A stretch of DNA of 64,000 nt from Nitrospinaceae bacterium (GCA_965223665.1 OZ245011.1:2144001-2208000), one strand, 5' to 3'. Counted from the stretch's first letter, positions 10,666 through 49,427 are shown. Translations and numbers: made by a program. The notes: generated by a model from the letters alone, not told the origin.

Positions 10666-11148
10666 ATGAAACGAATCTTGTTTACATTGCTATTGGCTGT
10701 GGTTCTTTGGGGTGGGATTGTGGCGGAGGGTGCGCTCGCGGCGGACCGGAATTACACGATCACAAACTGCAACCGTAAAAAACTGTGGGAGGATGTATCT
10801 AGCCGCATCCAGGTTCACAAACCCGAATTGATTGAGTACCTTAAAGAAAACATTAAATCCGATAAAGAAAGACCCCAATTAAGCGAATCCGATTACAAAG
10901 TTATTGAGGAATTTGACAAAAGTATTCAATGGCACGTCTCGGAATGTATTTTATTTATGAGAGAAGCCAATCAATTAATCGATTCCATTTATAAAGTTAA
11001 TTCTGAAAATGCCGACAATATTTCTTGGTATTTTATTGATTTATTTTCACGAAAAGATATCCCTTACATAAGACTTTGGAATAGGAATACTGAAAAAAGA
11101 TCCTTTTCCTTTAACTTTTCTCCTTTAGAACCTGAAAAAATTTATTAA
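10666..11148 (+). CDS. Secreted two-Cys immunity-like protein, copy 1
   Basis: Sec signal peptide (..ALAA/DRNY), NC.R..LW and W..SECIL motifs shared by 12 paralogs; 38-nt convergent overlap with an SLT remnant. Confidence 0.8.
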   Translation: MKRILFTLLLAVVLWGGIVAEGALAADRNYTITNCNRKKLWEDVSSRIQVHKPELIEYLKENIKSDKERPQLSESDYKVIEEFDKSIQWHVSECILFMREANQLIDSIYKVNSENADNISWYFIDLFSRKDIPYIRLWNRNTEKRSFSFNFSPLEPEKIY

Positions 11149-11370
11149 TCTTGACTTTCAAGGGCTTTGATAAATATTTTTTAAAAATTTCATATTTTTT
11201 ATCCATCCCTTCCCCTTCATTTTTCACAGCCATCTTCCTAACATCGTTCATCATTTTTTTCCCGAGCATAAATTCACTGATCACAAATGCGAATCGATTG
11301 TTGGTTTTGTCATAATCATCCCAAAGATACTTGAATAAATATGCTTCCACCAACTTGATTTGCTCAACAA
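11111..11370 (-). pseudogene. Orphan C-terminal fragment of an SLT-tailed ejection-like protein
   Basis: VEQIKLVEAYLF..LW..Y.KT.N..AFVI.EF matches the C-terminus of 12393..15701; there is no N-terminal part. Confidence 0.8.
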
Positions 11371-11404
11371 TTCCAAATTTCCCTTATTAAACTTTTGAGA
11401 GAGG

Positions 11405-11448
11405 ACCGATGTGCTCCCTCTTTTCTAAAGAGGGCTGGGGTGATTCAC
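11405..11448 (-). repeat. Short REP-like palindrome (left flank of DUF559 gene)
   Basis: CCCTCTTT-TCT-AAAGAGGG hairpin with GTGATTCAC; inverted relative to the copy at 11854-11916. Confidence 0.8.
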
Positions 11449-11478
11449 ATTTTCATGGGTTTTCTATAAAATTGTTTT

Positions 11479-11880
11479 ATGAACACCTCAAGAAATCCGA
11501 AACCTAGAGTTCCCTATAAAACTTCTTTAAAAGAAAAAGCACGACACTTACGCAACAACCCGACTCCCGCTGAGAAATTATTCTGGAACACTCTTCGTAA
11601 AATGCCCTTTTATTAAAAGAGAATTTTTAATCGGCAAAAACCCATCGGCCCTTACATTGTTGACTTTTTCTGCTATCAGCACAATCTTATCATCGAAATT
11701 GATGGCAACACTCATGCTCCCGATGGAAAAAGCTCTCTTGATATTAAGCGAACCCAATACCTGAAATCTTTAGGATATCGGGTTATTCGATTTTACAACC
11801 AGGATGTTTTAAACAATATCGATGGTGTCATGTTAGTTTTAGAGAAAGAACTCAAAACCCCTGGAGGTGAATCACCCTAG
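11479..11880 (+). pseudogene. DUF559 (Vsr-like) endonuclease with internal stop
   Basis: Manual translation: ARHLRNNPTPAEKLFW...*...FNRQKPIGPYIVDFFC...IIEIDGNTH...RTQYLKSLGYRVIRF. In-frame TAA at 11614-11616. Confidence 0.88.
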
Positions 11881-11916
11881 CCCTCTTTAGAAAAGAGGGA
11901 ACGCATCGGCTTCCCA
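11854..11916 (+). repeat. Short REP-like palindrome (right flank of DUF559 gene)
   Basis: AAAACCCCTGGAGGTGAATCACCCTAGCCCTCTTTAGAAAAGAGGGG; supplies the last codons of the DUF559 ORF. Confidence 0.8.
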
Positions 11917-11947
11917 ATCAGAATTATTTTTGATACAATTGGTAGTT

Positions 11948-12430
11948 ATGAAACGAATCTTGTTTACATTGCTATTGGCTGTGGTTCTTTGGGGTGGGAT
12001 TGTAGTGGAATCTGCGCTGGCGGCAGACCGGAACTACAAAATCGAAAACTGCGATCGCAAAAAACTATGGGAAGGTTTTTCAATTGAACTGCAAATTGAA
12101 AAACCGGAACTGATCGAATTTTTAGATAAATATGTTAAACCTACAAAAGAAGCTCCTAAATTAAACGAATCCGACTACAAAGATATTGAACAGTTTGACC
12201 AAAAATTTCAATGGAATGTTTCTGAGTGTATATTATTTTTTAAAGAAGCAAATCAATTAATAAATTCTGTCTATGAATTGGACAATAAGCAAGCTACTAA
12301 TATTTCTTGGGTGTTTACTTATTTATTTTCAAGAATGGACATCCCCTATGTCGACTTTTACAATAGAACTACGGACAAATGGTCTTTTACCTTTAACTTT
12401 GCGCCTTTAAGGCAAGGAAAAACTTATTGA
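11948..12430 (+). CDS. Secreted two-Cys immunity-like protein, copy 2
   Basis: Close paralog of copy 1; ATG 11948; 38-nt overlap with the 3' end of 12393..15701. Confidence 0.8.
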   Translation: MKRILFTLLLAVVLWGGIVVESALAADRNYKIENCDRKKLWEGFSIELQIEKPELIEFLDKYVKPTKEAPKLNESDYKDIEQFDQKFQWNVSECILFFKEANQLINSVYELDNKQATNISWVFTYLFSRMDIPYVDFYNRTTDKWSFTFNFAPLRQGKTY

Positions 12431-15400
12431 TACCCTTTTGCTTGTCCCCATCTAAATACTTACTAACAATTTCATATTTTTCGTGATCTCCTTTTTTCTT
12501 AATTTTTTTTGCCTGTTCCCTAGCTCTTTCTATCGCAGACTTTCCGTATAAAAACTCTCCAATCACAAAGGCCAAAGGATTTTTGGTTTTGTTGTATTTC
12601 TTCCACAACCGACCAAACAAATACGCTTCCACCAACTTGATTTGCTCAACCGGGTTTTTCATGACATCGTCAACGTTAAAGTTCAATCCCTCCACCTTCA
12701 ACAGGTTCACCGCATCCACCATGGTCTGCACCTTCGGTCGGGTCAGTTGGAACAAGCCTTTCTCTCCAGTTGACTTCACCAACTTCGGGTTGAGTCCCGA
12801 TAACATCTGCCCCAATGCACCCAACGTCCTATTGATCTGCCGGTCCGCCACCTCATATTCAAAGGGCGCGGTCTTGGTGACTTGATCAAAACTTTGAATG
12901 ATCTCCCGCTCACTATTAAAACTCACAGCACCCACTTTCCAATCCCCTTGCTGCGCGAACAATTCCGGAGCGCGGCCTTGTTTATCGCGGATAATTCCAT
13001 CGATCAAATTCCCCACCGGTGCGCGAGCCCCTTGTGGAAGGCTGTTTAACATTTCATCTTTTCCGTCCTTTAAGGTTTCCCCGGTCATTCGATACGCATT
13101 TTCGGCCAATACCGTCAGATTATATACCGTACCCTCCGTAAACATCAGGTAATCTCCCAGGCGCACTTTACCTTCTTCCCCTTCCATTTCCTCTTTGAAA
13201 ACTTCCAAAGATTCTTCATCCATTCGCATGACCTTCGGAGCTTTCTTATGAGCCAACGCCTTGTGGACCACCGTCGGCGGCTTGTTTCCATCCGCTATTA
13301 TTTGTTGAACTCCTCCGGCGGGCGTCAGGGCATCCAGCGGAAAAAATTTCGATACACTTTTACCGATCACATCGGCGACGTGTTCATTTTGCACAAGTTC
13401 TCCCTTACCGTTCCAAACCATGATCGCTTTCCGGTCCTGCTGCAAACGTGCTTCATAAACTTCGGCAATGTTTTGCATGGTCAGTTCTTTGTTTTCCCGT
13501 TTGAGTTTTTCCCCAATGGCATTACGCATACTCTCCGGAAGAGCGATCAGGTCCTTCACAAACACCTTCTTGTCCCCTACATTGACATAGGAAGAAAGAA
13601 TCTCCTTGTTCGTCAACTCAACTATCCGGCGGCTGACACCATTTATAAATACTTTGTCATGAAACAGACTATTCATGTAATAAGACATTTCTTTTTCACT
13701 GGGTTCCCGACCTAATTTTTCCTTAAAGTTTTTAAACTTAATTCCTAAAAAAGCATTGGCTCTATCGAAAACATTTTTACGAGTTTCCCGACCCAGGCCA
13801 TTGGCTTTAGCAATGCCCGACAACTTGTTTTGAAAGTTCGCCTTTTTTTCAAGAGAGCTTTCGGACTGAACCGTCTTTTGCCATTGTTTAAAGTTATCCA
13901 CCGTCCAATGTTTTTGAATCAGTTCGTTCAGTCGGGTCTCATCAAACACTTCTTCAAAGGAGCCGCCCTCTGACAATACTTTTTGTAAAACGTCCGTCAA
14001 GACCACGTTTCTAAACTCCGGGTCAAAGTTCACCGACTCCACTTTTTGGCTTAGCGTTCGCAACAGATTCAGTTTATTTTGCAACCGCGTTTTCACCACA
14101 TTGATATCCCCAACCTGCTGTACCTCTCCCTGTTCCGAGTTTTGAACGATTCGTTGATCTTCCTGAATCCCTCCTATAAATTCGTATAGCTTCGAGCGAA
14201 ACTTTCCTTTTTCGTAATGATTCACATCGAATTGATACGCGAAGTTTTTCGCGGGATCCCGGTCACTTAACAAAATGTTATCCACCCATCCCCCAACGGT
14301 TCGGGATTCCTGCTTCAACACGTAATGAGAATTTTCTTCTTTCGCCGATTCCTTAACTTGACCCTGAGACGCAATATCATTTTGGGTAGAGACCAATGTG
14401 GCGGCAGTTCCATCTGCACTGTCTTCTTCAAGGTTCACATCCAGCGAAGTTTTAAACGGCCGTCCGTCATCCACCGCCAATACCGCCTTCCCCGTGAATT
14501 GAGGGGGTTGAAACTCCGGGTCACCCTGCGTGCGCTCTTTGAGTTGCGCCTTCATTACCTGCTTCGTTTTTTCATCTAAAGAATTAAAATCCGGATGGTA
14601 ATGCAAATCCACCAGCGTGGGACTCGTCGGACTGTCCCAAATAAACTTGAAAACCTTCTCACTGTTATCATAGTTCAGTTTTAATTGTTTTCGCTTCTCC
14701 TCCAGATTCCGATGCACCAGTAACTGCCGGGTCATCTCCAACTCTTCCGGATCATCAATATGCCGGAGTTCCTCCTGTTGCTCTTCTTCCGGCAAGGACT
14801 CCAGCACCACCACATTGTGCTGAGCTTTTTCCAGAGTCACCCTTTCCTTAATCCGCGCTTCCAGTTGCGCTTTGTCGGTTTTGACAAACTTGTTTTGATT
14901 CTCCTTAAAAAATTGCTCCGCCTCTTCCCCTTGCTGGCGGTCCAGTAAGCCGTTAACCACACTCAGGGCCACCGCTTCTTCAATATTGGCGGTTTCCGCC
15001 TGGTCCCGTTCCTCACTCCACTCCATCGCCACTTTCATTTGACCCATGGTTCGGTACAAACTCACAATGTGTTTTTCTCTTCCATCAACATCGAGCGGAT
15101 TATCACGTATCGCTTTCAGCAAAGCGGCACGCGTGTGCTGGTAATCCTGAATCAGAGCCCGTTTCCGCTGAGTTTCTTCATACACTCCAGCCCGTTGAAA
15201 CAAATCTGCAAATTTTTGTTTTAAAATGGGCTCATACTCTTTCCGCACATACGACCGCATACCCCCTAACGCATTTTGGAGAGCCTGAAATTTTTCCGAG
15301 GCCGTATCCAATCCGTACTTTTCCATGAGTTCCGGATCCGTCGTGACGGTGGCACTTTCACTTGTAGTCGTATCAGCCGGTTCGAACAAAGGTTTTACGA

Positions 15401-15701
15401 TCTTAACAAGCGCATCCGTGTAGCCAAAACTCCTCTCTCCTTTCAAGGGAGCCAACGTTTTCATTACACTTTCTACATACTCGGTCGTCGCTTTATCTGC
15501 TTTCATTACGGATTGACCATCCGACCTGCGTCTTTGCACGTCCATGAATACAGCCGCTTCGCCTAAAGTGTCACTGAGTGCGGCCAGATTGCGCACTTTC
15601 GCTCCACCGACCAGTTCCGGCGTGACATTCAAACGCAACTGGCCGCCCCCAAGGGATTGGGGATTCACGGTGGGGTTATTTAACGCGGGGATTTTGGGCA
15701 T
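12393..15701 (-). CDS. Large ejection/internal-virion-like protein with C-terminal degenerate SLT domain
   Basis: Position downstream of capsid genes; helical N-part starting MPKIP; C-terminal SGLNP...GEKGLFQL...NPVEQI SLT-like motifs; AGGTGA RBS before ATG 15701. Confidence 0.65.
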   Translation of the reverse strand: MPKIPALNNPTVNPQSLGGGQLRLNVTPELVGGAKVRNLAALSDTLGEAAVFMDVQRRRSDGQSVMKADKATTEYVESVMKTLAPLKGERSFGYTDALVKIVKPLFEPADTTTSESATVTTDPELMEKYGLDTASEKFQALQNALGGMRSYVRKEYEPILKQKFADLFQRAGVYEETQRKRALIQDYQHTRAALLKAIRDNPLDVDGREKHIVSLYRTMGQMKVAMEWSEERDQAETANIEEAVALSVVNGLLDRQQGEEAEQFFKENQNKFVKTDKAQLEARIKERVTLEKAQHNVVVLESLPEEEQQEELRHIDDPEELEMTRQLLVHRNLEEKRKQLKLNYDNSEKVFKFIWDSPTSPTLVDLHYHPDFNSLDEKTKQVMKAQLKERTQGDPEFQPPQFTGKAVLAVDDGRPFKTSLDVNLEEDSADGTAATLVSTQNDIASQGQVKESAKEENSHYVLKQESRTVGGWVDNILLSDRDPAKNFAYQFDVNHYEKGKFRSKLYEFIGGIQEDQRIVQNSEQGEVQQVGDINVVKTRLQNKLNLLRTLSQKVESVNFDPEFRNVVLTDVLQKVLSEGGSFEEVFDETRLNELIQKHWTVDNFKQWQKTVQSESSLEKKANFQNKLSGIAKANGLGRETRKNVFDRANAFLGIKFKNFKEKLGREPSEKEMSYYMNSLFHDKVFINGVSRRIVELTNKEILSSYVNVGDKKVFVKDLIALPESMRNAIGEKLKRENKELTMQNIAEVYEARLQQDRKAIMVWNGKGELVQNEHVADVIGKSVSKFFPLDALTPAGGVQQIIADGNKPPTVVHKALAHKKAPKVMRMDEESLEVFKEEMEGEEGKVRLGDYLMFTEGTVYNLTVLAENAYRMTGETLKDGKDEMLNSLPQGARAPVGNLIDGIIRDKQGRAPELFAQQGDWKVGAVSFNSEREIIQSFDQVTKTAPFEYEVADRQINRTLGALGQMLSGLNPKLVKSTGEKGLFQLTRPKVQTMVDAVNLLKVEGLNFNVDDVMKNPVEQIKLVEAYLFGRLWKKYNKTKNPLAFVIGEFLYGKSAIERAREQAKKIKKKGDHEKYEIVSKYLDGDKQKGINKFFLALKAQS

Positions 15702-15815
15702 AAAGTTCACCTGAGTTGAGTGTTACACGGTTTGTTTGAAATTTCCTAAAAAAAGTTTCGATTACAATGTTTATTCCATTGACATCATTTTCAAAGAGTC
15801 CTATATTATTCACAT

Positions 15816-15942
15816 GCCGCCTCGTGCTCATCCCTCCTCTGCAGTCTCACTGGATGTGATTTAGTTTGGGATTGCTTATGAAGCAGGGATGTCAGGTCCA
15901 GGGACATCTAAGGCGTTTGTGGGGGCGCTTTCGCGAGGCGGC
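15816..15942 (+). ncRNA. Putative structured ncRNA, unit 1 (type A)
   Basis: TTGACA(15779)-17-TATATT promoter; closing stem GCCGCCTCGTG/CGCGAGGCGGC; three internal hairpins; loop CTGGAT complementary to loop GTCCAG. Confidence 0.75.
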
Positions 15943-16100
15943 TCCGGATTCTCTCCTTCCCCATTTATTCTAATTTTGATTCTTACAATCATTTAGAAAA
16001 CTCGGGGTTACCTGCTGGTAGATTTTCGGAAAGTGGTTCCATTTTCGTTTTCCGAACAGTTAGTATTGACACGATCATTGAATAATCCTATAGTAATCAT

Positions 16101-16230
16101 AAGCCGCTTCGTGCTCTGCCATCAAGAGCATGCTGACTAGGTTATTTTTTTCAGTATAGCTTTGGAAAGTAGGGGCATCCAGTCTAGGGGTGCCTGAAGT
16201 GTTTGTGGGGGCACTTCCTTGGAGCGGTTT
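16101..16230 (+). ncRNA. Putative structured ncRNA, unit 2 (type B)
   Basis: TTGACA(16066)-17-TATAGT; closing stem AAGCCGCTTC/GGAGCGGTTT; loops CTAGGT/GTCTAG complementary. Confidence 0.72.
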
Positions 16231-16293
16231 AAATTTCGTTTTCCGAATATTTAGTATTGACACGATCATTTAAAAATCATATATTATTAACAT

Positions 16294-16423
16294 GCCGCTT
16301 CGTGCTCATCCCTCCTGGATAATCTCACTGGACGCGTTATCATTGGGGTTATCTACCAAGCAGGGGTGTCAGGTCCAGGGACATCTAAGGCGTTTGTGGG
16401 GGCGCTTTCGCGAGGCGGCTCCA
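16294..16423 (+). ncRNA. Putative structured ncRNA, unit 3 (type A)
   Basis: TTGACA(16257)-17-TATATT; same fold; loops CTGGAC/GTCCAG; closing stem followed by TCCA. Confidence 0.75.
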
Positions 16424-16581
16424 GATTCCCTCCTTCCCCATTTATTCTAATTTTGATTCTTACTATCATTTAGAAAACTCTGAATTCCCTGCAGGTGGAA
16501 TTTCAAAAAGTGGCTCAAATTTCGTCTTCCAAAAAAAAAATGGTATTGACACGATCATTGTAAAATCATATATTATTCATA

Positions 16582-16705
16582 AGCCGCTTCGGACTCTAAC
16601 GCCAGGGACTTTACTGACTAGGCCTTAATTCAGTATTAGTTTCGACAGGAGGGACATCAGGCCTAGGGATGTCCAAAAGTGTTCGGGACACTTTACGAAG
16701 CGGTT
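16582..16705 (+). ncRNA. Putative structured ncRNA, unit 4 (type B)
   Basis: TTGACA(16546)-17-TATATT; closing stem AGCCGCTTCG/CGAAGCGGTT; loops CTAGGCCT/AGGCCTAG (8-bp complementarity). Confidence 0.75.
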
Positions 16706-16769
16706 GATATATTTCTTCTTCCGAATTTCTTGTTGACACGATCATTTAAAAATCATATATTATTCACAT

Positions 16770-16896
16770 GCCGCCTCGTGCTCATCCCTCCTGGGTAATC
16801 TCACTGGACGCGTTATCTTTGGGGTTACTTGTGAAGCAGGGATGTCAGGTCCAGGGACATCTAAGGCGTTTGGTGGGGGCGCTTTCGCGAGGCGGC
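16770..16896 (+). ncRNA. Putative structured ncRNA, unit 5 (type A)
   Basis: TTGACA(16733)-17-TATATT; same fold; ends 45 nt from the stop codon of the convergent 1112-aa gene. Confidence 0.75.
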
Positions 16897-16941
16897 TCCG
16901 GATTCTCTCCATCCCCTTTTATCTAATTTTTATTCTTACAC

Positions 16942-19900
16942 TCAATTAGAAATCTCGGAATTTCCTGCTGGTGGGTTTTCAGAAAGTGGTTCCATTTTTC
17001 CCTTCTTCACTTTATTTTTTATGTAGTTTCCGGACTCAGGAAAACTACTTCTAACTGTATAAAATGTCTCCTTTTCTTCTATAAGTTCTAGAACGGCTAT
17101 TTTTCCCTTACCATTTCTTTTAACTATAATCACGGCTCCATTAGATTTTTGATAAAGCGCTTCAGTATAATTTTTTGTAATATCATAAACAAATTCAGTA
17201 AGGTTTTTGTACTCTGGAAAGTCCCTAAGAATCTTTTCAACTCTGTTAGGGGTTGCCTCAATATGGATACGACCAAAATCATTATCACCTACTTGAAATC
17301 TAATTTTATGTGCCGGAACTTTTCTTCCAGACGGAGTATACATTTCTTTCATTTCCCCAAAGTCGATTCCCCCATCCGGTGATTCCACAAAAGCCTTCGG
17401 GCCCATTCGGATGGAGCCTCTTTCGGAGCGGAGCCACTCGGGAACGGCTTCTACAAAACCGGAACGTTTGACTTCTTTTATGAACTCGACCAGGTGTTTT
17501 ACCCCTTTGCCGGTCAGTTCAAACGCTTCGCCCATGGCTCCGCCTTCGACCACGTTCTTCAGGGCTTTTTCCAGTTCGCTGTCGTCGATTTTCGAGGCCA
17601 GGAAATCGGTAAGAGGATTACGCAGTTCGGGGGCCATTTCGTTGAACAGGTTGGAAAGGTTCTGATCCCGATCCACCGTCAGCAAGTCCGCCGCGATGCC
17701 CGCGATCACGTTCCCGGAACTAAAAAATTCTTTCGACAACACCGCATTTCCCTTGGCAAAGATTCTACGACTGACCAGAAATCCCAACGCAAACGAAAAC
17801 AGTCCGCGAGCCATTTGCACGCCGGGGTTGCTGGAGGCTTCCATCCGCTCCATTTCTATGGGCATGCGTCCGCCGATTCCCCAGTCGTCCAGCCATTCCT
17901 GAACTGTGGTGTTACCGATTTTCAAATCCCGCAGGTCCTGTCCCAGCTCCGTCACCAGAGTCAACAAATTGATCGCCGCATCTTTCGTTCCACCGACGAC
18001 AATGTTCTCGGCCTGGCTCAATAAGCTTTCTTCCCGCCGAAGTTCGGTGTTATCCATACCTGCCAATCGAATTTTAAAATCTCCTCCAAGGGCAACGCCA
18101 TTCGCAAGAGTGACCTGCTTCCCCTGAGACTGAAGTTCTTTTACAAAGATTTCTTTTTTCTCCGGCGGCAATTGCAATAGATTCACGTATTCCTCAAAAC
18201 TGATGTCCTGTTTATTAAACCGGGCATTTTCTCTCAGGGTTTTGTTCTGACTCAAATGGGTCGCAAAATCAGGGATCGATAACTCGATGTCCGTTCCGGG
18301 ATTTAGTGAATTCAATTGCGAGGCAAGGTCGGGAACATTTTGAATAAGATCTTTAAGGTCCAATCCTTCAGTCTCCAGAGCCTGTTGAAACGTTTCCCGA
18401 TTAATAAACACTTTTGGCGTTTGGCTCCCGAAAACCTCAGGATGGTTTTCAACCACTTCTCCTATGTACTGCTTCACTCTTGCGCGGGCGACTCCCTCCG
18501 GCGGCACATCTTTGACCGCTTCATGAATATCCTCCAACATTCTTTTCGTGAGAATAGGCTGATTCGGGTTCGGCTCTGTTCGCTGAGGCAGTCTCAATGG
18601 GGAATTGCCTGTGGAGACCCGGGTCCCTTCGATGAGCGCATTTTCCGGAGAATTATTTTTTATACTATTCCTGGGTAATGGTGGACTTATGGTTTTACTG
18701 GTCCCCTTTGAAGATTTTGGCATCACTTTTTTCAATATCAATTGGGGAACTCCTTCGGCAAATGCTTTATACACCGCATCCGTGGCTTTATCCAATACCT
18801 GTTGTAACCGCTGGGTCGGCGATAACAAAGATCCGGGTTTTTGGGGATCGGATTCCACCGCCATTTCTTTACCCAATTCACTGAAAAATGACTGTAAAAC
18901 ATTTTTTTCCATTTCTTCCGTGATCCCCTGGCTGGTCTGATTGATAGCCTTCAGTAATTTTTTTCCTTTTTTACTGGTCAAAAATGTTTTGATTCCATCC
19001 GAGATATATTTTTTGGAAGCTTTGGAGAGCGGTTTGGTAAAAATCTTCCCGCCAAAAAATTCTACCGCCGCATTGATGGTAGCCACATTGAAGGCAATCG
19101 GTTTGGCCAATTCCATAGAGGTTCCATTCATTACCAGTTCAGCAATCGTCGTTCCATATTGGGTTTTCCAGGTATCGTACGCATCACCGCCTCTGATTCC
19201 CAACCCAAACCCCGTCAAACCGAAAGCCGGTAACGTGACGGCTTCTTCGGGAAGAAAATTGAGTCCCGGAAAATTTCCCAGAATCAGGGATAACTCCACA
19301 CCCGCCAGTGCTCCCGTAAAACCGCCTGTCAACAATTCAGGAGATTTGTGTGCGATATTTGTAAATACTTCCGCGACATTAAAAACCGTTCCGGTCCCCT
19401 TGTTTTGACCCATTAACCGTTCCAAATTTTTAATTTTGTTGAGTGCGGCATCAAATTCTTCCTGGGTGCGACCAGGCTGACTCATGTAATTGCCAATTTC
19501 TGCCCGCTTTCGAAAATAGCCAACAAACTTCATCGCTTTGCCCACATCAATCACGCCTTTTTCAAACACACCTAATTTCCCGACCCTGCCAAAGTCCATT
19601 GAAAAATAATTGAAGTCTTCGGTCATCTTCTTCTGCAATACAGTAGTATCTTTGAAAACCTCTGCGGTCCTTTGGTGATTCCATTCCTTTTGGGCATTTT
19701 GGAAATCGTTTTTTATGATTTCAACCGGTATATCCAGTTTGCGCGATAGAAACTGGATTTGCGCCGCATGTTCCGGAGACACTGAAGAAGAAACCAAAGT
19801 GAATGGGTTTTCCGGCTGTTCATTACGAATAGAACGTTTCAATCCCATAGCGCCATCATAGAACGCGCCAAGTCCTAATCCTCTATCTTCGGATTGTTTG

Positions 19901-41229: not shown

Positions 41230-41246
41230 AAATTTTCTCAATCATA

Positions 41247-42591: not shown

Positions 42592-42665
42592 TTTCTATCC
42601 TTGTTCTAAAAATAACTTTTTAGCCACTGCTTTAACGTGAAATTGATGTGATATAATATTTGGTT

Positions 42666-43145
42666 ATGAGACGGATCTTAATTATATTTGTAGTTGTTGG
42701 CTTATTTATAAGTGGACCACAAATCGGAAACGCTGCCGACCAGAATTACATTATTGAAAACTGCGATCGCGAGTATCTTTGGGCTGAAATTTTGAAAGAC
42801 ATTCGCTGGCGCGCTCCGGAGGATGCTAAGTTTATTGAGGAACATATTCAACCTACCAAAAATCATCCAAAGCTGACAGAAAAGGACTACCGGGACATCG
42901 ATAAAATGGACAAAGCAATTCGTTGGTACGCCTCCGAATGCATTTTGCTGATGAAAGAAATCAATGAATTTTTGGGTGCTATTCATTCTAAGAACTCTGA
43001 TATTGCTATGGGTTTAACCTTTGAGATTGATGGAACCCTAAACAAATTTGATATACCGTTTTTCAGGCACTTTAATCGAGAAAATGAATTTAAACCTTTT
43101 TTTGAATTCATGTATTATCTTTATAAGCCTTCCGGAAAGCTTTGA
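42666..43145 (+). CDS. Secreted two-Cys immunity-like protein, copy 12
   Basis: Family motifs; 38-nt overlap. Confidence 0.8.
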   Translation: MRRILIIFVVVGLFISGPQIGNAADQNYIIENCDREYLWAEILKDIRWRAPEDAKFIEEHIQPTKNHPKLTEKDYRDIDKMDKAIRWYASECILLMKEINEFLGAIHSKNSDIAMGLTFEIDGTLNKFDIPFFRHFNRENEFKPFFEFMYYLYKPSGKL

Positions 43146-44037
43146 GATATTCTGCCGGTGATAAATCGTTCTTATTCGGTCGTGTATTCATGGATTTCAG
43201 CTTCAAGACTTCCTTAATCTTGTTTCCTGCTCCCTGACCAAATGATTTTTCAGCTTCCTTTCTCGCTTTTTTTACATCATTCGCCCCTATTTTGTACTCC
43301 AATACCAGAAACCCGATTCGATCATCCGCCTTATCATAGCGTTTCCAGCCATCAAAAAATAAAACCTGTCCGGCAATGATATTAGCTTCATTTTTATCCA
43401 AAATATCGGTTTTGGTAAAACCCGTATTTAGATTTTGGGCAATTAAACCTGCTGTCCCATCAAGTATCTGCATCAATCCGGAAGCTGTGGAGTTTGGATT
43501 TTTTACTTTTGGCCTAAAACTGGATTCAATTTGAATTAACGATTTTGTGATTCGACTCACCTCTTGAACAGGAACCGGATAACCAAATTTCTTATGGGTT
43601 TTAACGGTAATTAAATCCACCAAATGTTTGACCTCTTTCACCGTACCAAATTTATAATTGGTATTAAATTTTCCTTGCTGACCGGGTTGCTTGCTTTGGC
43701 CTTTCGGTGCGTTGACGATTGCCTGCTGCATAGCCCAGTCCATTTGCGGGTTACCGCTGCCGAGGGCGCTGGGGGGAAGAGGTTTATCCGGGTTCTCTGT
43801 GTTGTACAAAATACTTGGATCAATCGTCCTCTCTGAGGCTGGAAGACTTTCCTGTGCGGTTAAACCTCCATTCAATAATGTTGGTCTCCGATTTCTTCGT
43901 CTTCCTTTTTTAGTGCCAACCCGGCGGTCATCCTTTTTTCCGGAGTCATCTCCGTAAAGAATTTCTGCCATCTCTTCCCATCTTTCCCGACTCGGTGGAT
44001 TGGAACTACCATATTCACTTAAATTAATTCTTCCCAT
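43108..44037 (-). CDS. Short SLT effector-like protein C
   Basis: QIESSFRPKVKNPNSTASGLMQI...EYKIG. Confidence 0.85.
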   Translation of the reverse strand: MGRINLSEYGSSNPPSRERWEEMAEILYGDDSGKKDDRRVGTKKGRRRNRRPTLLNGGLTAQESLPASERTIDPSILYNTENPDKPLPPSALGSGNPQMDWAMQQAIVNAPKGQSKQPGQQGKFNTNYKFGTVKEVKHLVDLITVKTHKKFGYPVPVQEVSRITKSLIQIESSFRPKVKNPNSTASGLMQILDGTAGLIAQNLNTGFTKTDILDKNEANIIAGQVLFFDGWKRYDKADDRIGFLVLEYKIGANDVKKARKEAEKSFGQGAGNKIKEVLKLKSMNTRPNKNDLSPAEYLKAFRKAYKDNT

Positions 44038-44063
44038 TTTCTATCCTTTAATTAATTCCCGGA

Positions 44064-44448
44064 ATGTGAATCACCCCAGCCCGGCCCCCGGCCGGCAGGA
44101 ACATTCTTTTGCGATGATTTAATTTCAATGCTATATCTTCACAAAGTTTTCGAGGATTATAGTTGCCCCCAATCGCTAGATTGGAAAAGGGGAGCGCATT
44201 GGCTTCCCATTTTTATATTTGCTTCTAAAAGTAAAATTTGAGAACAGTTTCTGTCGATTCAATGTTCGCCACCGATCAGCGCAAATGAAAGTTGCCGCCA
44301 CGGCGAGTGAGTGCCCCCAATCGCTAGATTGGAAAAGAGGGAGCACATCGGCTTCCATAGAAACTCAACGCAAATGAAAGTTGCCGCCACGGCGAGTGGT
44401 GAATCACCCTGACCCTCTTTAGGAAAGAGGGAGCACATCGTTTTCCCC
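44064..44448 (+). repeat. Cluster of REP-like repeats plus a 30-bp direct repeat
   Basis: One long form and two short/partial forms; CGCAAATGAAAGTTGCCGCCACGGCGAGTG at ~44280 and ~44369. Confidence 0.75.
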
Positions 44449-44657
44449 TGCGTCATATTCTCCAAAAGACAAAATCTGAGTTTGAAAATTTTCTGAAGAT
44501 TCCCTTCTATATATAGAACAAACTCACTTCCCTTTCTTAGATCACTGATCGGTATTCCGCCAGTTCAGGAAGCGGGCCCAAAGGCGGCGCAGCCAGCGTT
44601 TCAGTTTTTGCCAAAATCCGGGAGGGTCTTCTTGGGGTTTTCTATTTTGCCAGGGCA

Positions 44658-46775
44658 TCAGTTCATTCCATTTTCAAAGAGGAGTAATAAGTCTATGTCT
44701 GTATTCCAGAACGGTCCCGGTACGGTCGGGCCGCTTAAAACCATCACTGCGTTCGGCGTCACCACCAGCGGAACGTTGCCCACCAATACAAAGCTGGATT
44801 GGCCGGCGCTGTAATCCATTGGTGAATTGGCACTCAAAACCGCGGCCACGTCTCCATCCACCCAGGGATGTTTGTTTTGCTCCAAAACTGAACTGACCGC
44901 CAAAGCCAACGTGATATCTCCCGCAATTTCCGGGTGACGGTTCATTAACATTCCGGCCTGAGGTGTCAATTCCAGATCCACATTGCCGGCAATCGAATAC
45001 GCGCCGAACGCACTCATTCCGGATTGTGGGGTGAGGGTGACGGAAACGGTTCCGTCGATGGAGGGATGGATTTGAACGTCCATCACCGATGCGGCCTCAA
45101 ACTGGCTGGTCACGTTGCCATCAATCGAAGGATGAATATTAAAATCGAAAATTCCTTCGGCAGACAGGGTTAAGGGAATATTGCCGCTCAACGACGGATG
45201 AATGTTTTTCACAAATGTGGACAGCGGTGTGATGTCCAACGGAACCGATCCGGTCAAATTCAAATGTTGATTGTATTGCTCGATTCCATCCGGGGAGAGA
45301 GTGACCATTACATTGCCGACGACGGAAAAATCAAAATGCGCGGTCATGATCGCCGCGGGTGTAACGTCGGCAGTGACGTTGCCGGTAATGGAGTAACTTG
45401 CCGCAGGAGTGCCGACGGTAATGGATGGAGTTTGCGTGATCGTATTTAAAATTTGGAAAGACTCTTGTCGGGCTAGACGGAACTCAATGACATCAGTATC
45501 CACTGTGTCTGCATCGACGATCTTAATGACAAACTCAACTTCGGTTTCGTCATTGCCGGCAAAGGTGATTTTCTTACCCTGCCAATCGTTCTCCATCACG
45601 TATCCGGTGGCAAACGTGCCCGAACCTAAACGCTGAGTACTGTTTTCGAGATCCGTGATATTCGAACTCAATACGAGTTGGGCAACCGAAGAAGCATTGG
45701 TCACGCCACCCCAGGAACCTGAATTTAATCGTCGTTGCAATGAAAGCGCATCGACAGCACCATTAGCCGTTGCACACTTCACCAGGAAGCGCAACCGAAC
45801 TGTGGTTTCCGCTTGGAGAGTAATGTCTGTGTTCAATGCGGCTTTAAATGTAGCTGCCGACTCCGAGCCGTCGTCATTAATAAAACGAAATGAATGTTGA
45901 TCCAATACTGGTTCGTCAACGGTTATGCGTGGGGTTTGGGTGTAGGCATCGAGGGCAGTGGACCCGTCGTAAACACGAAAATCGATGGTGTCTAAATCCG
46001 CGACTTCCTGAGGTCGAATCCAAAAACAGAATTCCACTTCGGTGTGTTCGCTAGCGGCTAAAGTAATCGCGGCGGCTTGTCCGTCAGATTCGTCAAACTC
46101 ACCGGCTTTAAACGTTCCGGTTCCTCCAAGTTGGTCGGTGGTTGCAGTGCCATTCGAAATATTAGGTGAACCAATAGACCGAGCAATCGAGGAAGCACCG
46201 TCAACGCGAGTGTAAGTTCCACTGGAGTGACTGCGATACAAAGTAGGCGTGAACGTAATTCCGGAACCGCCCGTTTCCTGAACGACAAACCGTAAGCGCA
46301 CCGGGACATCTGTCGAATGGTTGATGCTGGTATTTTCTGTTGCCAGCCAGGTTGCGGTGGTTTCGCTTCCATCGGTATCTCTAAATCGGAACCCGGTCTG
46401 ATCCAGTGTAGCGGATACAGCGTTGACCGTAATAGTTTGGCTGGAACTGTTGGTGGCGGCACCGCCGTTGTTGTTATCGATAACGCGGATGCGAACCGCA
46501 TAAGTCCCGGCGGTGTTGCAGGTAATGGTCTGGGTGTGCTCCAGCTCATCCCCTAAATTGGAGAGCGTGTTGGTGGGCGTGGTGAGTGCCGCGCCACTGG
46601 AGGGAATGTTCACCCAGGTGCTGGTGCCCTGGTCCCACTGCCAGATCATGTTGTAATCCCCACCGCCGTGATTGGACAGAGTGACCTGCCCTCCCATGGT
46701 AAACGTTTGGCCTTCGTTTAGATTCGGGTCGCTAGTGGGTTGAGTTAAGCTGACACTGGTTACGGTTTTAGCCAT
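44658..46775 (-). CDS. Thr/Ser-rich beta-repeat structural protein (Ig-like/fibre-like)
   Basis: Two ~170-aa repeats (LDQ..FRF...DGSE..AT..A..NT.I...VRLRF) and about nine ~23-aa I.GNV...LTP repeats. Confidence 0.6.
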   Translation of the reverse strand: MAKTVTSVSLTQPTSDPNLNEGQTFTMGGQVTLSNHGGGDYNMIWQWDQGTSTWVNIPSSGAALTTPTNTLSNLGDELEHTQTITCNTAGTYAVRIRVIDNNNGGAATNSSSQTITVNAVSATLDQTGFRFRDTDGSETTATWLATENTSINHSTDVPVRLRFVVQETGGSGITFTPTLYRSHSSGTYTRVDGASSIARSIGSPNISNGTATTDQLGGTGTFKAGEFDESDGQAAAITLAASEHTEVEFCFWIRPQEVADLDTIDFRVYDGSTALDAYTQTPRITVDEPVLDQHSFRFINDDGSESAATFKAALNTDITLQAETTVRLRFLVKCATANGAVDALSLQRRLNSGSWGGVTNASSVAQLVLSSNITDLENSTQRLGSGTFATGYVMENDWQGKKITFAGNDETEVEFVIKIVDADTVDTDVIEFRLARQESFQILNTITQTPSITVGTPAASYSITGNVTADVTPAAIMTAHFDFSVVGNVMVTLSPDGIEQYNQHLNLTGSVPLDITPLSTFVKNIHPSLSGNIPLTLSAEGIFDFNIHPSIDGNVTSQFEAASVMDVQIHPSIDGTVSVTLTPQSGMSAFGAYSIAGNVDLELTPQAGMLMNRHPEIAGDITLALAVSSVLEQNKHPWVDGDVAAVLSANSPMDYSAGQSSFVLVGNVPLVVTPNAVMVLSGPTVPGPFWNTDIDLLLLFENGMN

Positions 46776-47175
46776 GGTCCTCCACTTTTACAACTTTGAG
46801 ATAACAACGTTTTTCGCCCTGGGCGTATAAGTCATTGAGAGTGTCAATGTCCAGTTGCCGACGCGGCCAGACAACACAGGAAATGGGCTTGCAGGACCGC
46901 CCGCCCTTCTCCTGTTGGCCGCACTTGAGTGTGTCTTGATTCAAATGCTCGCAGGAAGTGCCCACCGGCCCGATCAACGGCATAGCCTGACAACATAACG
47001 CCTGACATTTTTCGGTGGGGCACCGCACCTGACCGTTTTCATCTTCCACATACCCCTGCACTTCGTACTGCTGGCCGTCTTTATCGACAAACTTCATTTG
47101 GTCCCAGTTTTCGGTACGCAGTACGACGTACGAGTATTGTGCGGAACTCTCTGTCTCCGTTGGGGGGATTGACAT
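46768..47175 (-). CDS. Cys-cluster protein, YkgJ (CxxCxxCC)-like
   Basis: CPTEKCQALCC...CEHL...KC...KPISCVVWP. Confidence 0.6.
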   Translation of the reverse strand: MSIPPTETESSAQYSYVVLRTENWDQMKFVDKDGQQYEVQGYVEDENGQVRCPTEKCQALCCQAMPLIGPVGTSCEHLNQDTLKCGQQEKGGRSCKPISCVVWPRRQLDIDTLNDLYAQGEKRCYLKVVKVEDHG

Positions 47176-47195
47176 ATAAGATTCGCCGAGTGTTC

Positions 47196-47507
47196 TCAGG
47201 AAAATTTATGAAGTTTAGCTCGGCGATCATCCGCCGCAACAGCGGTGTTATCCAAAGCCAAAGTCAATTGGTGCATCGCCAGCGCGGTGTTAATAGCATC
47301 TTGGGTTTTCGTTACCTGCTCCGAGGTTGCTGTGCCGCCATCGGTGAACAGTTGATCGGCCAATTCCTGATCGGACAAGGTTCCCTTGACTTCCTGCAGG
47401 TCTTTGTATTCCTCTTCAGCCTGAGCAAGGGTCACTAAAATCTGCTTACTGTGCTGTTCTAACCTGCGAACCACATCCGGCCATTTCATTTCACTTGAGT
47501 AAGGCAT
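47196..47507 (-). CDS. Hypothetical helical phage protein
   Basis: AGGAG RBS; tightly packed operon. Confidence 0.6.
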   Translation of the reverse strand: MPYSSEMKWPDVVRRLEQHSKQILVTLAQAEEEYKDLQEVKGTLSDQELADQLFTDGGTATSEQVTKTQDAINTALAMHQLTLALDNTAVAADDRRAKLHKFS

Positions 47508-47525
47508 AATTTATTTTGACTCCTG

Positions 47526-47954
47526 TTATTCCGCAGAGATTTGCGGGGTGATGTCGTAAGTATCGCCATCGTTTAAGGTATATGGTCCGTTACCGTCTAC
47601 TTCAATCGCAAGGATTCGCGCCGTTCCTGTGCCTGCGGGCTTCGTTGCAATGAAATATCCATATATACTTCCGGAGTAATTGCCGCCCGATGGTGAAAAC
47701 TGCTGAACGGCGTAGGTCATGGGATTGGCCGAGGTCCAACTACCATCAGTAAGCGTCTTGCGTGCATAGCCCCCGCCGGTAGGTTCTGTGATGGTAGCTT
47801 CCGTGATGGTGTCCCCAGGAGCAGAATTTGTAAACAGACCCAATTCCAGATCGGCTCCTCTATCGGTGTTAGTGTTAAACGTTGAAACGTTTTCGGCGGA
47901 CAAGGCTAAATCTAAAAAAACCTGTTCCCCTTCATTGGGCACAAATCCGGGCAT
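47526..47954 (-). CDS. Phage structural protein (fibre/spike-associated type)
   Basis: LGLFT..P.D......TEPTGGGYARK.LT...W pattern common in phage structural modules; GGAGG RBS. Confidence 0.6.
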   Translation of the reverse strand: MPGFVPNEGEQVFLDLALSAENVSTFNTNTDRGADLELGLFTNSAPGDTITEATITEPTGGGYARKTLTDGSWTSANPMTYAVQQFSPSGGNYSGSIYGYFIATKPAGTGTARILAIEVDGNGPYTLNDGDTYDITPQISAE

Positions 47955-47965
47955 ATCTTTACCTC

Positions 47966-48259
47966 CTATTCGTTAACCGCAACCGCGTGCGGGATTAAAT
48001 GTTCTCGTGGTATTTCTCGATATTCTCGCGGGTCCGGTCCCTCGAATTCGGGATGGGTGACCAAATCGTTAGTGAAAATCACTTCGTAACCTTTGCGCGC
48101 CATGATGCGTTGAAAGCTGGCGGGGTCATCGTTCTCTCCCACTCGCCCTCTAAAGTTGAACTGTCCGGATGGCTCGCCCTGACCGGGCATAAACTGGTGC
48201 TGTCCTTCCGCCTCGCTCTCGTTTTCTTTTTTCTTTGAAGTTTCCAAATAGCAAAACAT
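47966..48259 (-). CDS. Hypothetical protein
   Basis: Abuts its neighbours in the operon; AGGAG upstream. Confidence 0.55.
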   Translation of the reverse strand: MFCYLETSKKKENESEAEGQHQFMPGQGEPSGQFNFRGRVGENDDPASFQRIMARKGYEVIFTNDLVTHPEFEGPDPREYREIPREHLIPHAVAVNE

Positions 48260-48658
48260 TTATCTCACTCCTGCGGTTAAAGTTATGTTGGTATTAGATC
48301 CTGCGAGCCGGGCCGCCTCTATTCGTATGGCATCGAATCCACTAGGGTATAACAGAAACCAGCCGCGGGTCCCCGACGGCAAAGTCGTCAGGTCGCTACT
48401 GGCGCCGATCAGGACGCCTTCCGGCGTGGTGTAATCGGTCGGAGTGGAATACAACACGCTCCAGGCGCCGCTTTTTTGGGCTCGTGCCGAAATGACAAAT
48501 TGATCAAGATCGGTGGTGTCGGAAAGGATTTGCACAAAGAGGGCATAACGGTAGAGGATCCGTATATCCTTGATGACAGTTAGAGATTCGTCTTCCAACA
48601 CCACCGATGCGGAGACGTATTCTATCGGCTGCGATTTATATCCGTCGTGATTCGACAT
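48260..48658 (-). CDS. Hypothetical beta-rich phage protein
   Basis: GAGGAG RBS; abuts the next ORF. Confidence 0.6.
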   Translation of the reverse strand: MSNHDGYKSQPIEYVSASVVLEDESLTVIKDIRILYRYALFVQILSDTTDLDQFVISARAQKSGAWSVLYSTPTDYTTPEGVLIGASSDLTTLPSGTRGWFLLYPSGFDAIRIEAARLAGSNTNITLTAGVR

Positions 48659-48694
48659 TCTATATGTTGACTCCTCGCTTGAAGATCGCGGTTA

Positions 48695-49024
48695 TCATTG
48701 ACAGCATGGACCGTGAACATCCATAGCCAGTTGGTTTTCTAATCCGGAAACGTATTGGGTGTGTTTGATGAAATCGGCCTTGTTCAAGCAGGACAGCATT
48801 TCCTGATCGACCACCCCGCTGTTTAAGTATTGCCATTCGATGAAGGGTCGTTGAAACCTTCGAGGCTTTGAAGATACCTGGCTCCACGTGAACCGATCCG
48901 GGTGCCGGGAAGTTTCCACTTGCGAAGTGGCCAGGCGCTGTTGGCACGCATAACTTTCGATGGCATAGTAAACGGCAAAACAAATGCTGTAGACAATCAC
49001 TGCCATTAAAAGGAAACGTTTCAT
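48695..49024 (-). CDS. Hypothetical protein with N-terminal TM/signal segment
   Basis: MKRFLLMAVIVYSICFAVYY; ATGA overlap. Confidence 0.5.
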   Translation of the reverse strand: MKRFLLMAVIVYSICFAVYYAIESYACQQRLATSQVETSRHPDRFTWSQVSSKPRRFQRPFIEWQYLNSGVVDQEMLSCLNKADFIKHTQYVSGLENQLAMDVHGPCCQ

Positions 49025-49227
49025 GATCGCGGCACCCCGACCTTATTGACGGGTTTGTCCTTAGGGTTGGAATGAGGTGAGTTTTTCAGTAAATTCCGTT
49101 CCTTTAAGTCGCTTTTCCCTGAGGTCCTTCCATAAGACTGGCGGCTGCCGAGCCAGGCCGCATAAAGCAACAAAACCGTGATGGAAATTATCACTACGAC
49201 TAAAGCTTCGACCATTCCTGCCTCCAC
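49021..49227 (-). CDS. Small single-TM protein
   Basis: Hydrophobic helix followed by a basic tail; overlaps neighbours. Confidence 0.45.
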   Translation of the reverse strand: MEAGMVEALVVVIISITVLLLYAAWLGSRQSYGRTSGKSDLKERNLLKNSPHSNPKDKPVNKVGVPRS

Positions 49228-49427
49228 TCTTCATCTTTGGGATCCGGGAACATCACGTCCAGCGTTTGTCTCACCGATTCCGAAACATTGGTAGACCCCG
49301 GTTGGTTCTTGCGAATCGAATCTTCGTTTTGCCAGAACTGGTCCCAGTAGATTTTGCTGAGTTGTTGTCCCGAGAGGACATCTTTCACGGTTCCGTCGGG
49401 ACGCTTGACGCGAACTTCATAAAACAT
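49200..49427 (-). CDS. Hypothetical protein
   Basis: MFYEVRVKRPDGTVK..LS...LSK.YW; first gene of the minus-strand run. Confidence 0.55.
   Translation of the reverse strand: MFYEVRVKRPDGTVKDVLSGQQLSKIYWDQFWQNEDSIRKNQPGSTNVSESVRQTLDVMFPDPKDEEWRQEWSKL

Follow-up and report, generated by a model that had tools for sequence, protein, structure and literature searches.

The window considered here, meaning the whole stretch of 64,000 nt analysed from the genome of a Nitrospinaceae bacterium (GCA_965223665.1 OZ245011.1; G000:C1:2144001-2208000), contains what its anatomy and evolution support as a domesticated phage particle locus with polymorphic, immunity-like cassettes. The element holds a BPP-1/T7-like podophage virion module, outruns the window and appears from its sequence to be the chromosomal descendant of a short-tailed phage of this kind in one Nitrospinaceae genus. 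The part of it that has been duplicated and diversified would be the part that must cross the wall of a target cell, namely gp15/gp16-like ejection proteins and SLT proteins of about 300 aa, and the SLT-type genes face, on the opposite strand, genes for a family of small secreted paralogs. With a probability of about 0.5 we take these paralogs to be cognate periplasmic inhibitors of injected wall-cutting SLT modules, by analogy with the Spackle protein of phage T4. A first-pass annotation of the same DNA had already noticed phage head genes, SLT-like genes and secreted paralogs on the opposite strand, all of which are borne out by family scans and alignments. The interval it gave, 10666-49427, is however too short, as tail genes of the same element sit upstream of the window, and the label of a head module is likewise too narrow, since the genome (G000) has adaptor, nozzle and fiber genes there.

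The virion genes were identified by scanning about 50 open reading frames (ORFs) of the element, from -12.4 kb to +49.2 kb, against Pfam, PHROGs and NCBIfam, negative coordinates denoting the 20 kb upstream of the window start counted in window numbering; Pfam was additionally run on an inserted island and on the right flank. On the minus strand are found the small terminase gene terS (38123-38647; PF03592, E 2.1e-33), intact both here and in the sister species G001, the portal (23911-25569; PF12236, 4.3e-152; 47% identical to the BPP-1 portal), a Bbp19-like protein (23580-23909; PF25181, 2e-7), a scaffold/prohead protease-like protein (22889-23629; phrog_458, 2e-38; 30% identical to BPP-1 bbp18), the major capsid protein of the GP7 family (21645-22652; PF20911, 6.4e-130; 44% identical to that of BPP-1 and 96% identical in G001), a Bbp16-type cement protein (21201-21590; PF21190, 4.5e-13) and a gp14-like internal virion protein (20344-20871; PF24072, 3.4e-8; phrog_418, 9.5e-21). 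The portal, capsid, Bbp16, Bbp19 and gp14-like genes form one co-directional block. Pfam and PHROG matches thus confirm the terS, portal, scaffold, capsid, cement and ejection-like genes of the first-pass annotation, while the large terminase gene terL (36649-38214, minus strand) is only probable and is so called mainly because of its position, overlapping terS and preceding the virion genes. It matches the unlabelled phrog_5902 (7e-67) and is 50-63% identical to the gene preceding portal on related viral contigs, it has no Pfam family, and among PDB sequences it comes closest to the Sf6 large terminase (gp2), at only E 0.019.

Two proteins of about 1100 aa are encoded after the gp14-like gene, in the gp15 and gp16 places of T7-like phages. 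The gp15-like ejection protein (16942-20280, minus strand; 1112 aa) matches phrog_6651, an internal virion protein family, at 1.4e-8 and is 24% identical to a 710-aa paralog, and the gp16-like protein (12393-15710, minus strand; 1105 aa) carries a C-terminal SLT-fold domain. A second, diverged pair of such genes lies between terL and portal, at 34326-36452 and 31009-34302 on the minus strand, where the gp15-like member (708 aa; phrog_9880) shares 45% identity with a 711-aa protein of G001 and 23% with the 710-aa paralog. Among named phages, those most closely related are BPP-1-like, and tblastn of all ORFs against BPP-1 matches the capsid, scaffold and portal. Homology with this phage, a Rauchvirus, comprises the portal, Bbp19, protease/scaffold, GP7 capsid, Bbp16, adaptor, nozzle and gp14-like proteins as well as an SLT-bearing internal protein and the N-terminus of the tail fiber.

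The count of eight SLT-like genes or fragments, four intact and four broken, that had been given for the window is exact. The intact genes, all on the minus strand, encode the 1105-aa protein and three small proteins of 345 aa (39644-40681; PF01464, 1.3e-8), 300 aa (41689-42591; 1.2e-11) and 309 aa (43108-44037; 1.3e-12), each consisting of a constant N-terminus and a variable SLT domain. Only the three small proteins, at 34.8-47.8 bits, exceed the Pfam SLT (PF01464) cut-off of 21.3 bits; the large ones score 17.5 bits (12393-15710) and 16.4 bits. Among the broken genes, likewise on the minus strand, the second gp16-like gene (31009-34302) has in-frame stops at 33343-33345 (TAA) and 32764-32766 (TAG), and its G001 counterpart is intact (1151 aa; 79% identity in the first 315 aa). 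Both stops are covered without any difference by Logan contigs from runs X1 and X3, which derive from one sample that may also be the source of the assembly, and they are therefore not long-read consensus errors. A small-SLT pseudogene (27289-28190) has a frameshift near codon 143, spanned by no listed Logan contig, and a premature stop, and is 80-82% identical to 309-aa proteins of G001. The remaining two are orphans, a gp16-type C-terminal piece in two ORFs of 159 and 110 aa (29715-30448; 72% identical to a 326-aa ORF on G001 contig 9) and an SLT-type C-terminal fragment of 80 aa (11111-11353; 59% identical to the end of a 1111-aa protein of G001) downstream of the full gp16-like gene.

The small SLT proteins keep the catalytic Glu-Ser motif, which is aligned in a profile match to MltC at 2.4e-6. 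For the large proteins the C-terminal profile matches MltF only at E 0.007, but when the C-terminal 189 aa of the 1105-aa protein are modelled with AlphaFold2 (pLDDT 73), MltF, MltE and MltC come out as the best Foldseek matches (TM 0.57-0.62, probability 1.00, E about 6e-3), and glycosidases acting on cell walls or chitin make up 44 of the 45 matches listed. Judged from the model, these large C-termini thus appear to have a lytic-transglycosylase fold. All 15 SLT C-termini that were aligned are SLT-like, and there is no assortment of unrelated toxin domains among them.

The organization of these genes resembles that of polymorphic toxins. In all ten small SLT proteins of G000 and G001 the first 113 residues are nearly invariant, charged and end at a VNAPKG motif, and none of the ten has an N-terminal hydrophobic segment or a cysteine in this constant part. 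Past the motif the SLT domains are 47-61% identical between types (whole proteins 47-87%). At the nucleotide level the ten units show a sharp step from 85-92% identity in the 5' arm to 50-65% elsewhere, and synonymous divergence (dS) in the constant arm, on average 0.32, is as low as 0.06 within one genome, which together point to exchange or homogenization through the arm. The N-terminal region of the small proteins retrieved 11 proteins from a search of 5.8 billion, all from G000 and G001, and that of the large proteins retrieved five from the same number, two of them from metagenome contigs (P0019, P0021). The large gp16-like proteins are 36-79% identical in their N-terminus and 20-35% in their C-terminus, and an orphan C-terminus with its paralog lies downstream of all four full-length gp16-like genes that have paralogs, two in each genome. 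The constant N-terminus, variable C-terminus, adjacent partner and orphan cassettes described earlier are accordingly real as far as alignments go, albeit with one fold only, and cassette content differs between the two species on vertically kept head genes, as had also been anticipated.

Further variation is seen in assemblies and reads. Contig 9 of G001 (L017, 15,978 bp), which also carries large TPR genes and an rve-type transposase, repeats the portal-proximal region at 96% nucleotide identity with a different series of cassettes; it represents either a variant strain that was co-assembled or another, partial copy. Short-read contigs covering 26000-44200 leave the reference at cassette borders, from 43396 to 42207 with 6 letters between in four of four runs, from 44158 to 28822 in three runs, and from 42601 or 44047 to 28999 in one run each. 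These jumps, whose flanking sides are only 20-37 letters, may reflect alternative cassette arrangements within the population or wrong joins at repeats.

The secreted paralogs are all encoded on the plus strand. Twelve had been counted in the window, of which eleven are full-length, while the twelfth is an N-terminal fragment of 48 positions with one internal stop, found by profile search at 28253-28396 (G000:C1:2172253-2172396); in the entire genome this search has 13 matches, none of them lying elsewhere than in the window or a short way upstream of it. The paralog at 10666-11148 overlaps the 3' end of the orphan C-terminus 11111-11353 by 38 nt, that at 11930-12430 is cognate to the 1105-aa protein with the same overlap, that at 26803-27288 adjoins the small-SLT pseudogene, that at 29270-29752 is paired with the orphan C-terminus 29715-30448 and that at 30564-31046 is cognate to the broken gp16-like gene. 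Those at 39181-39687 (44-nt overlap), 41247-41726 and 42660-43145 are cognate to the small SLT proteins of 345, 300 and 309 aa, respectively, and the three at 26252-26731, 38686-39165 and 40750-41229 have no adjoining SLT gene. There are 12-18 diversified copies per genome. All 26 full-length paralogs of the two species start with a hydrophobic segment, behind which comes an Ala-rich site, and have exactly two cysteines in a mature part of about 135 aa, the N-terminal half of which is conserved and the last third variable. In G001 one copy (G001:C13:189619-190074, profile positions 9-160) lies far from the element.

The AlphaFold2 model of the paralog 42660-43145 (pLDDT 83.3, above 90 over most of the mature part) is a helical bundle with a beta hairpin at its end. 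In the PDB no match was better than E 1.5 with Foldseek or E 0.78 with a sequence profile, and VIA-align, run on 48,161 chains, reached at most Z 5.5, with helical segments of a generic kind, so that the family apparently has a new fold, its confident model resembling nothing solved. HMMER, run over all of 1.84 billion representative proteins, found six paralog clusters (50% identity), all at E <1e-30. There was no Pfam match for ten copies, no PHROG or NCBIfam match for one copy each, and no tblastn match of one copy to 50,697 phage records, and pattern scans, which can miss diverged relatives, found no paralogs in IMG/VR contigs or JGI metagenome contigs and no small SLT proteins in the same JGI contigs. 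From these searches the paralog family seems confined to this small clade. The cassettes might also have been expected in ordinary free phage genomes, but none were found in the phage records (one paralog), in the IMG/VR contigs scanned or in the examined parts of 28 viral contigs that encode a related capsid (identity up to 68%), where neither paralogs nor small SLT genes were seen.

Every SLT-type 3' end faces a paralog on the opposite strand. Of 23 such pairs, 18 overlap by exactly 38 nt and two by 44 nt, and three do not overlap; the common antisense overlap might couple expression of the shield to that of the particle genes. Across 22 pairs, a set excluding the pair 26803/27347 and the paralogs without a neighbor, identity between SLT domains follows that between their paralogs, with a Pearson coefficient of 0.85, a Spearman coefficient of 0.60 and no value this high in 2000 Mantel permutations. 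As for charge, 13 out of 15 paralogs have an acidic mature part, and the 15 SLT C-termini are without exception basic. A complex prediction for the SLT domain of 43108-44037 and the mature paralog 42660-43145 scored 0.00 without controls and is no evidence either way.

With respect to distribution, 41 genomes were searched, comprising G000, its sister species G001 as the sole other species of the genus, 19 other members of the family and 20 from the rest of the order; G000 and G001 both appear to be metagenome assemblies. Capsid and paralogs occur in two of the 41, G000 and G001, and in none of the 19 or the 20. A check of synteny and of the ratio of nonsynonymous to synonymous divergence (dN/dS), proposed with the first-pass annotation, came out in favor of vertical inheritance, as the element of G001 is at the same locus with syntenic genes on both flanks and virion dN/dS is 0.002-0.22. 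Element genes differ between the species by a dS of 0.10-0.87 in 15 of 17 cases, the other two being 1.7 and 2.4. For comparison, the recA locus has a dS of 0.31-0.53 (four ORFs), the gyrB locus one of 1.03-1.24 (two ORFs) and the right flank one of 0.98-1.10 (four genes). All 17 compared genes are intact in both species, and pairwise dN/dS is at most 0.22 in all of them and at most 0.10 in 12 (portal 0.002, capsid 0.037, probable terL 0.044, Bbp16 0.020), with recA at 0.029 and gyrB at 0.027; in the portal a single residue of 552 differs (99.8% identical) despite a dS of 0.35. Host-like dS and low dN/dS are what is expected if the element was present in the common ancestor and its virion genes were kept under selection, and they are not values that a recent prophage or a neutral remnant would give. 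Vertical inheritance under purifying selection therefore argues for a domesticated, or at least selectively maintained, particle locus rather than a fresh prophage.

The content of the element agrees with this notion. No family match to an integrase, excisionase, repressor, primase, polymerase, helicase or endolysin, all of which BPP-1 carries, nor to a holin, was found among the ORFs scanned, although small unannotated ORFs remain. The earlier statement that integrase, repressor, replication and holin/endolysin genes are lacking accordingly holds for the some 50 ORFs scanned. It might have been an att-flanked prophage with its other modules just outside the window, but the borders in G000 share no word of at least 13 nt, those of G001 only three inverted words of 13-14 nt, and the modules outside the window are those of the tail only. 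These comprise, in G000, the tail adaptor tubA (-1594..-977; 41% identical to bbp14; phrog_394, 1e-39), the nozzle tubB (-4376..-1596; 40% identical to bbp13; phrog_376, 8e-196) and a tail fiber of 1007 aa (-11918..-8895; N-terminus 38% identical to bbp9; phrog_1640). An N-terminally truncated gp16-like gene (-8295..-5614; 893 aa) with its own convergent paralog at -8755..-8258 and a GNAT gene are also found among these upstream genes. A search for tail and lysis genes elsewhere, which had been suggested, thus succeeded for the adaptor, nozzle and fiber, whereas for lysis no family was found, only a weak match to an Rz-like spanin (E 0.0013) in a 176-aa neighbor restricted to G001. A lysis module may have left its remains in this protein and in a 124-aa protein adjoining the fiber gene, which has a coiled coil and a single membrane segment.

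The upstream tail genes are separated from the rest of the element by an island specific to G000 and, according to Pfam, not phage-derived (about -630..10615, 11-12 kb). It encodes a sigma-54 activator on the minus strand (5' part in the window; also L018:19373-20000) and, on the plus strand, a fatty-acid desaturase, a split PPDK-like pair, a methyltransferase, an acyltransferase and a reductase-kinase fusion. No counterpart exists in the element region of G001, and in G001 as a whole its 827-aa protein gets no more than a 22-bit match. Among the 28 viral contigs, 16 carry the adaptor and/or nozzle downstream of capsid and Bbp16, and the order portal-scaffold-capsid-Bbp16-tubA-tubB is seen in those reaching that far. 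This order is broken here, with tubA and tubB displaced in G000, and together with the lack of cassettes on the viral contigs it indicates that the order in G000 is rearranged and that the cassettes are additions. The element departs from BPP-1 not only in lacking the integrase, excisionase, cI/Cro, primase, polymerase, helicase, endolysin and diversity-generating retroelement, but also in its displaced (G000) or not found (G001) adaptor and nozzle, its duplicated ejection genes and some 11 kb of cassettes between terL and portal. The locus is about 50-62 kb long, compared to 42.5 kb for a genome of BPP-1 size.

How the paralogs may act follows from where the two partners would be located. SLT proteins without an export signal would stay in the cytoplasm of the producer or in the capsid, and as their carriers lack such a signal the periplasm can be reached only from outside, by ejection. 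We infer that particles are produced and that they contain these proteins. The exported partner would wait in the periplasm of the resident cell, where it would bind and neutralize the matching incoming SLT module, and entry of particles of the same type would then be blocked or slowed, as T4 Spackle does to the gp5 lysozyme. Ejected SLT carriers and exported paralogs make a resident periplasmic neutralizing binder the simplest model, and it is on this ground that we infer binding and inhibition. Escape variants of the SLT modules and capture of inhibitor genes would build up the arrays and orphans, recombining through the constant regions, and the linkage, the orphans and the stockpiled solo paralogs all fit such an arms race of escape and capture.

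Spackle is described in PMC7677548 as a protein of the periplasm that forms a helical bundle, contains a disulfide and inhibits gp5, the tail lysozyme brought along by T4 particles on superinfection. Like Spackle, the paralog is a small exported resident protein, modelled as helical and with a conserved cysteine pair that may form a disulfide, and its presumed target is a wall-cutting domain that would arrive with the incoming particle on a carrier without export signal. On the other hand no similarity in sequence or fold was found, no PDB profile match being below E 0.78 and Spackle not being among the Foldseek or VIA-align rows. The mature paralog is also longer than Spackle (about 135 aa compared to 75 aa), it is physically linked to its presumed target through overlapping 3' ends and exists in 12-18 copies per genome, and the presumed target is an SLT fold on podophage ejection proteins and not a T4-type lysozyme.

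A number of observations nevertheless speak against periplasmic inhibitors of an injected enzyme. At the position of the catalytic Glu the large gp16-like C-termini have Q, L, N, D or H, depending on copy and alignment (Q or L in 12393-15710), and in some large copies a Glu is found one or two residues off. Several partners would hence face a probably inactive domain, and from sequence the missing Glu may fit a binder better than an enzyme inhibitor, or a pairing with another purpose, although it does leave open that the partner may block a structural step rather than catalysis. The paralog model matches no known inhibitor fold. Since the paired genes overlap physically, their correlated identities show duplication and divergence as a unit and not interaction. 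Decay is evident in G000, where one gp16-like and one small SLT gene are broken, and the adaptor and nozzle were not found with these two queries in G001, which is 98% complete and may thus not build a tail. Finally, the dN/dS values are pairwise and cannot tell whether selection still acts in both lineages.

Some of these points would be equally expected of a decaying prophage remnant without present function, in which the cassettes would date from a past arms race over superinfection exclusion and the low dN/dS from past selection. The two nonsense codons, the frameshift and the truncated pieces in G000, the broken canonical gene order with displaced tubA and tubB, their absence among the genes found in G001 and the 11-12 kb of non-phage DNA inside the element are all in agreement with this, but we consider it unlikely, as it sits poorly with 17 of 17 compared genes being intact in both species at a dN/dS of 0.002-0.22 and at a divergence comparable to that of recA and gyrB, and with a portal that has changed in one of 552 residues at a dS of 0.35; breakage is moreover seen only in redundant, duplicated modules. 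Purifying selection, vertical descent and the restriction to structural genes are on the other hand GTA-like hallmarks (GTA, gene transfer agent), and would be accommodated if the periplasmic paralog were a docking partner through which DNA enters only kin with a matching cassette. This notion accounts for co-divergence, linkage and compartments equally well as inhibition does, and it explains why partners are found beside SLT-fold domains without the catalytic residue. However, the solo paralogs (26252, 38686, 40750) are easier to understand as stockpiled immunity, a lock and a key that have to diversify jointly evolve less readily than a means of escaping inhibition, and we know of no precedent for a periplasmic receptor of a podophage ejection protein, all of which make docking the most improbable of the explanations considered here.

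Delivery of toxins is suggested by the same polymorphic anatomy. Particles would in that case inject wall-lytic and perhaps RNase cargo, killing neighbors without the matching periplasmic immunity in the manner of the predicted capsid-borne MuF toxins; PMC3482391 and PMC5576092 propose that prophage remnants deliver toxins by way of the capsid. That three small proteins keep the Glu-Ser motif and exceed the Pfam SLT cut-off is in line with such a weapon, as is an ESM Atlas lead of 0.79-0.84, below 0.9, from the last approximately 180 aa of the 1112-aa protein to clusters of PBECR (Barnase-EndoU-ColicinE5/D-RelE-like) nucleases. The lead is all there is for the RNase cargo that had been put forward, as the last 186 and 386 aa of this protein and its G001 counterpart match no nuclease family in Pfam up to E 10, and no partner gene adjoins it. 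In addition, the variable modules are all of one fold and not an assortment of toxins, most of those on large proteins lack the canonical catalytic residue, and no MuF (Phage_Mu_F) domain is among the Pfam matches of the SLT-bearing or neighboring proteins. In T7-like virions only few copies of the ejection proteins enter the cell, and their lytic transglycosylase serves local passage through the wall and not lysis; a few ejected wall-cutting molecules would make a weak weapon. Interbacterial killing and RNase cargo are accordingly not supported, and a weapon seems decidedly unlikely. Less far-fetched, but still doubtful, is a new delivery class of polymorphic effector in which the podophage ejection complex would be an interchangeable warhead and the lineage-specific periplasmic family the shield, allowing kin discrimination in that only cells without the shield would be entered or harmed.

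Periplasmic inhibition of injected SLT modules, which we prefer, would place the locus between several known systems, as it seems to combine Spackle-type exclusion, polymorphic toxin architecture and a domesticated prophage. The constant N-terminus, the sharp switch to a variable module, the partner gene at the 3' end, the displaced cassettes of C-terminus and partner downstream and the different content in close relatives are all shared with the polymorphic toxins of the CDI (contact-dependent inhibition) and Rhs systems (Zhang et al. 2012, PMC3482391). The cassettes differ from these in that only one fold is used here, that the partner is convergent and overlapping and not co-directional, that the carrier is a phage ejection protein instead of a substrate of a secretion system, and that most large modules lack the catalytic residue. 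The neighborhood of packaging and head genes and the proposed route by capsid or ejection are likewise reminiscent of the MuF toxins, which PMC5576092 and PMC3482391 report mainly from Firmicutes and with assorted toxin domains; the element differs in having no MuF domain and in its carriers, which are gp16-like proteins and a lineage-specific N-terminal region of 113 aa.

With GTAs and domesticated prophages the element has in common, as far as can be known from genes alone, that it consists of structural phage genes only, sits at a fixed site and is inherited vertically under purifying selection, but it is unlike GTAs in its podophage ancestry, and to our knowledge the known GTAs have no arrays of cassettes for ejection enzymes and partners. 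The type VI glycoside-hydrolase effectors Tse3 and Tge are countered by the periplasmic immunity proteins Tsi3 and Tgi, respectively. The arrangement of a wall-cutting protein without export signal beside the gene for an exported putative protector is the same in these systems, whereas the delivery machine is different and the genes are convergent here.

A few other features of the element should also be mentioned. Just upstream of the portal two small Arg-rich proteins of 67 and 119 aa are encoded on the minus strand (25569-26136), the former with phrog_831 (6e-9) and a C-terminus that matches BPP-1 bbp22, and both are likely small internal head proteins. They begin with Met-Cys-Gly-Gly and have an Arg-rich stretch followed by a T-L-L motif, which recurs, as a lead only, in the constant N-terminus of the small SLT proteins (39644-44037); a relationship between the two was dismissed, as hhalign gave a probability of 0.2-0.6%, which is not significant. 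A repeat-rich protein of 705 aa (44658-46775, minus strand), 92% identical in G001 at a dN/dS of 0.072, is of unknown family and possibly a fiber or adhesin; it has no Pfam, PHROG, NCBIfam or PDB match and an Atlas value of 0.83 to unnamed viral clusters. Adjoining it are seven small ORFs (135, 103, 142, 97, 132, 109 and 68 aa; 46768-49227, minus strand) without family that are 75-98% identical in G001 (dN/dS 0.02-0.22), the last two of which (48695-49227) have a hydrophobic start segment and are membrane-anchored according to hydropathy. The C-terminal domain of the 1112-aa protein (16942-17502) is 71% identical between the species, its carrier in G001 (L014:1120-2202) being a hybrid protein of 1016 aa.

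Between the first gp16-like and gp15-like genes a non-coding tandem repeat (15802-16989; unit of 477 bp, 2.5 copies, 82% matches) is found, in G001 as well, with no conserved ORF and no Rfam match. It holds five promoter-like elements of 55 nt (15776-16784), oriented on the plus strand and so antisense to the virion operon, in which TTGACA and TATATT form a -35/-10 pair close to consensus at a spacing of 17 nt. The whole window has no Rfam match and no tRNA, and a scan of 38000-49900 for promoters and terminators was uninformative, with 15 of each compared to 20.0 +/- 5.0 and 13.5 +/- 3.9 in shuffled sequences. At the left border of the G001 element there is an HTH gene with Peptidase_M78 (ImmA/IrrE-like) and a DUF4411 gene (L013:5607-7333), both absent from G000, that could be a remnant of a mobile-element regulator. 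Left of the element in G000 a CBM96-domain protein (L018:2262-3548, corresponding to -17738..-16452) has a C-terminus that by tblastn weakly matches (E 1e-5) the opposite strand of BPP-1 bbp36 at its VR2 region, a match that is probably spurious.

The partner family is in any case a clean target for structural and binding work, and the natural panel of at least 20 cognate and non-cognate pairs is well suited for a direct test of specificity. A limited literature search with 'Nitrospina' and 'prophage' found nothing on such loci in uncultured marine nitrite oxidizers, the host lineage in question, and the element is a candidate podophage-derived and vertically inherited addition to the short list of domesticated phage machines. 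If the paralogs are indeed inhibitors of the injected SLT modules, the wall-crossing step of genome ejection would be contested by modular, exchangeable pairs of enzyme and inhibitor, a contest so far known from the single case of Spackle and gp5 in T4 and here found in arrays with the architecture of polymorphic toxins. Should the pairs in addition serve kin discrimination, these slow-growing marine nitrite oxidizers would possess a device for it that is built from the wall-crossing step of a phage.

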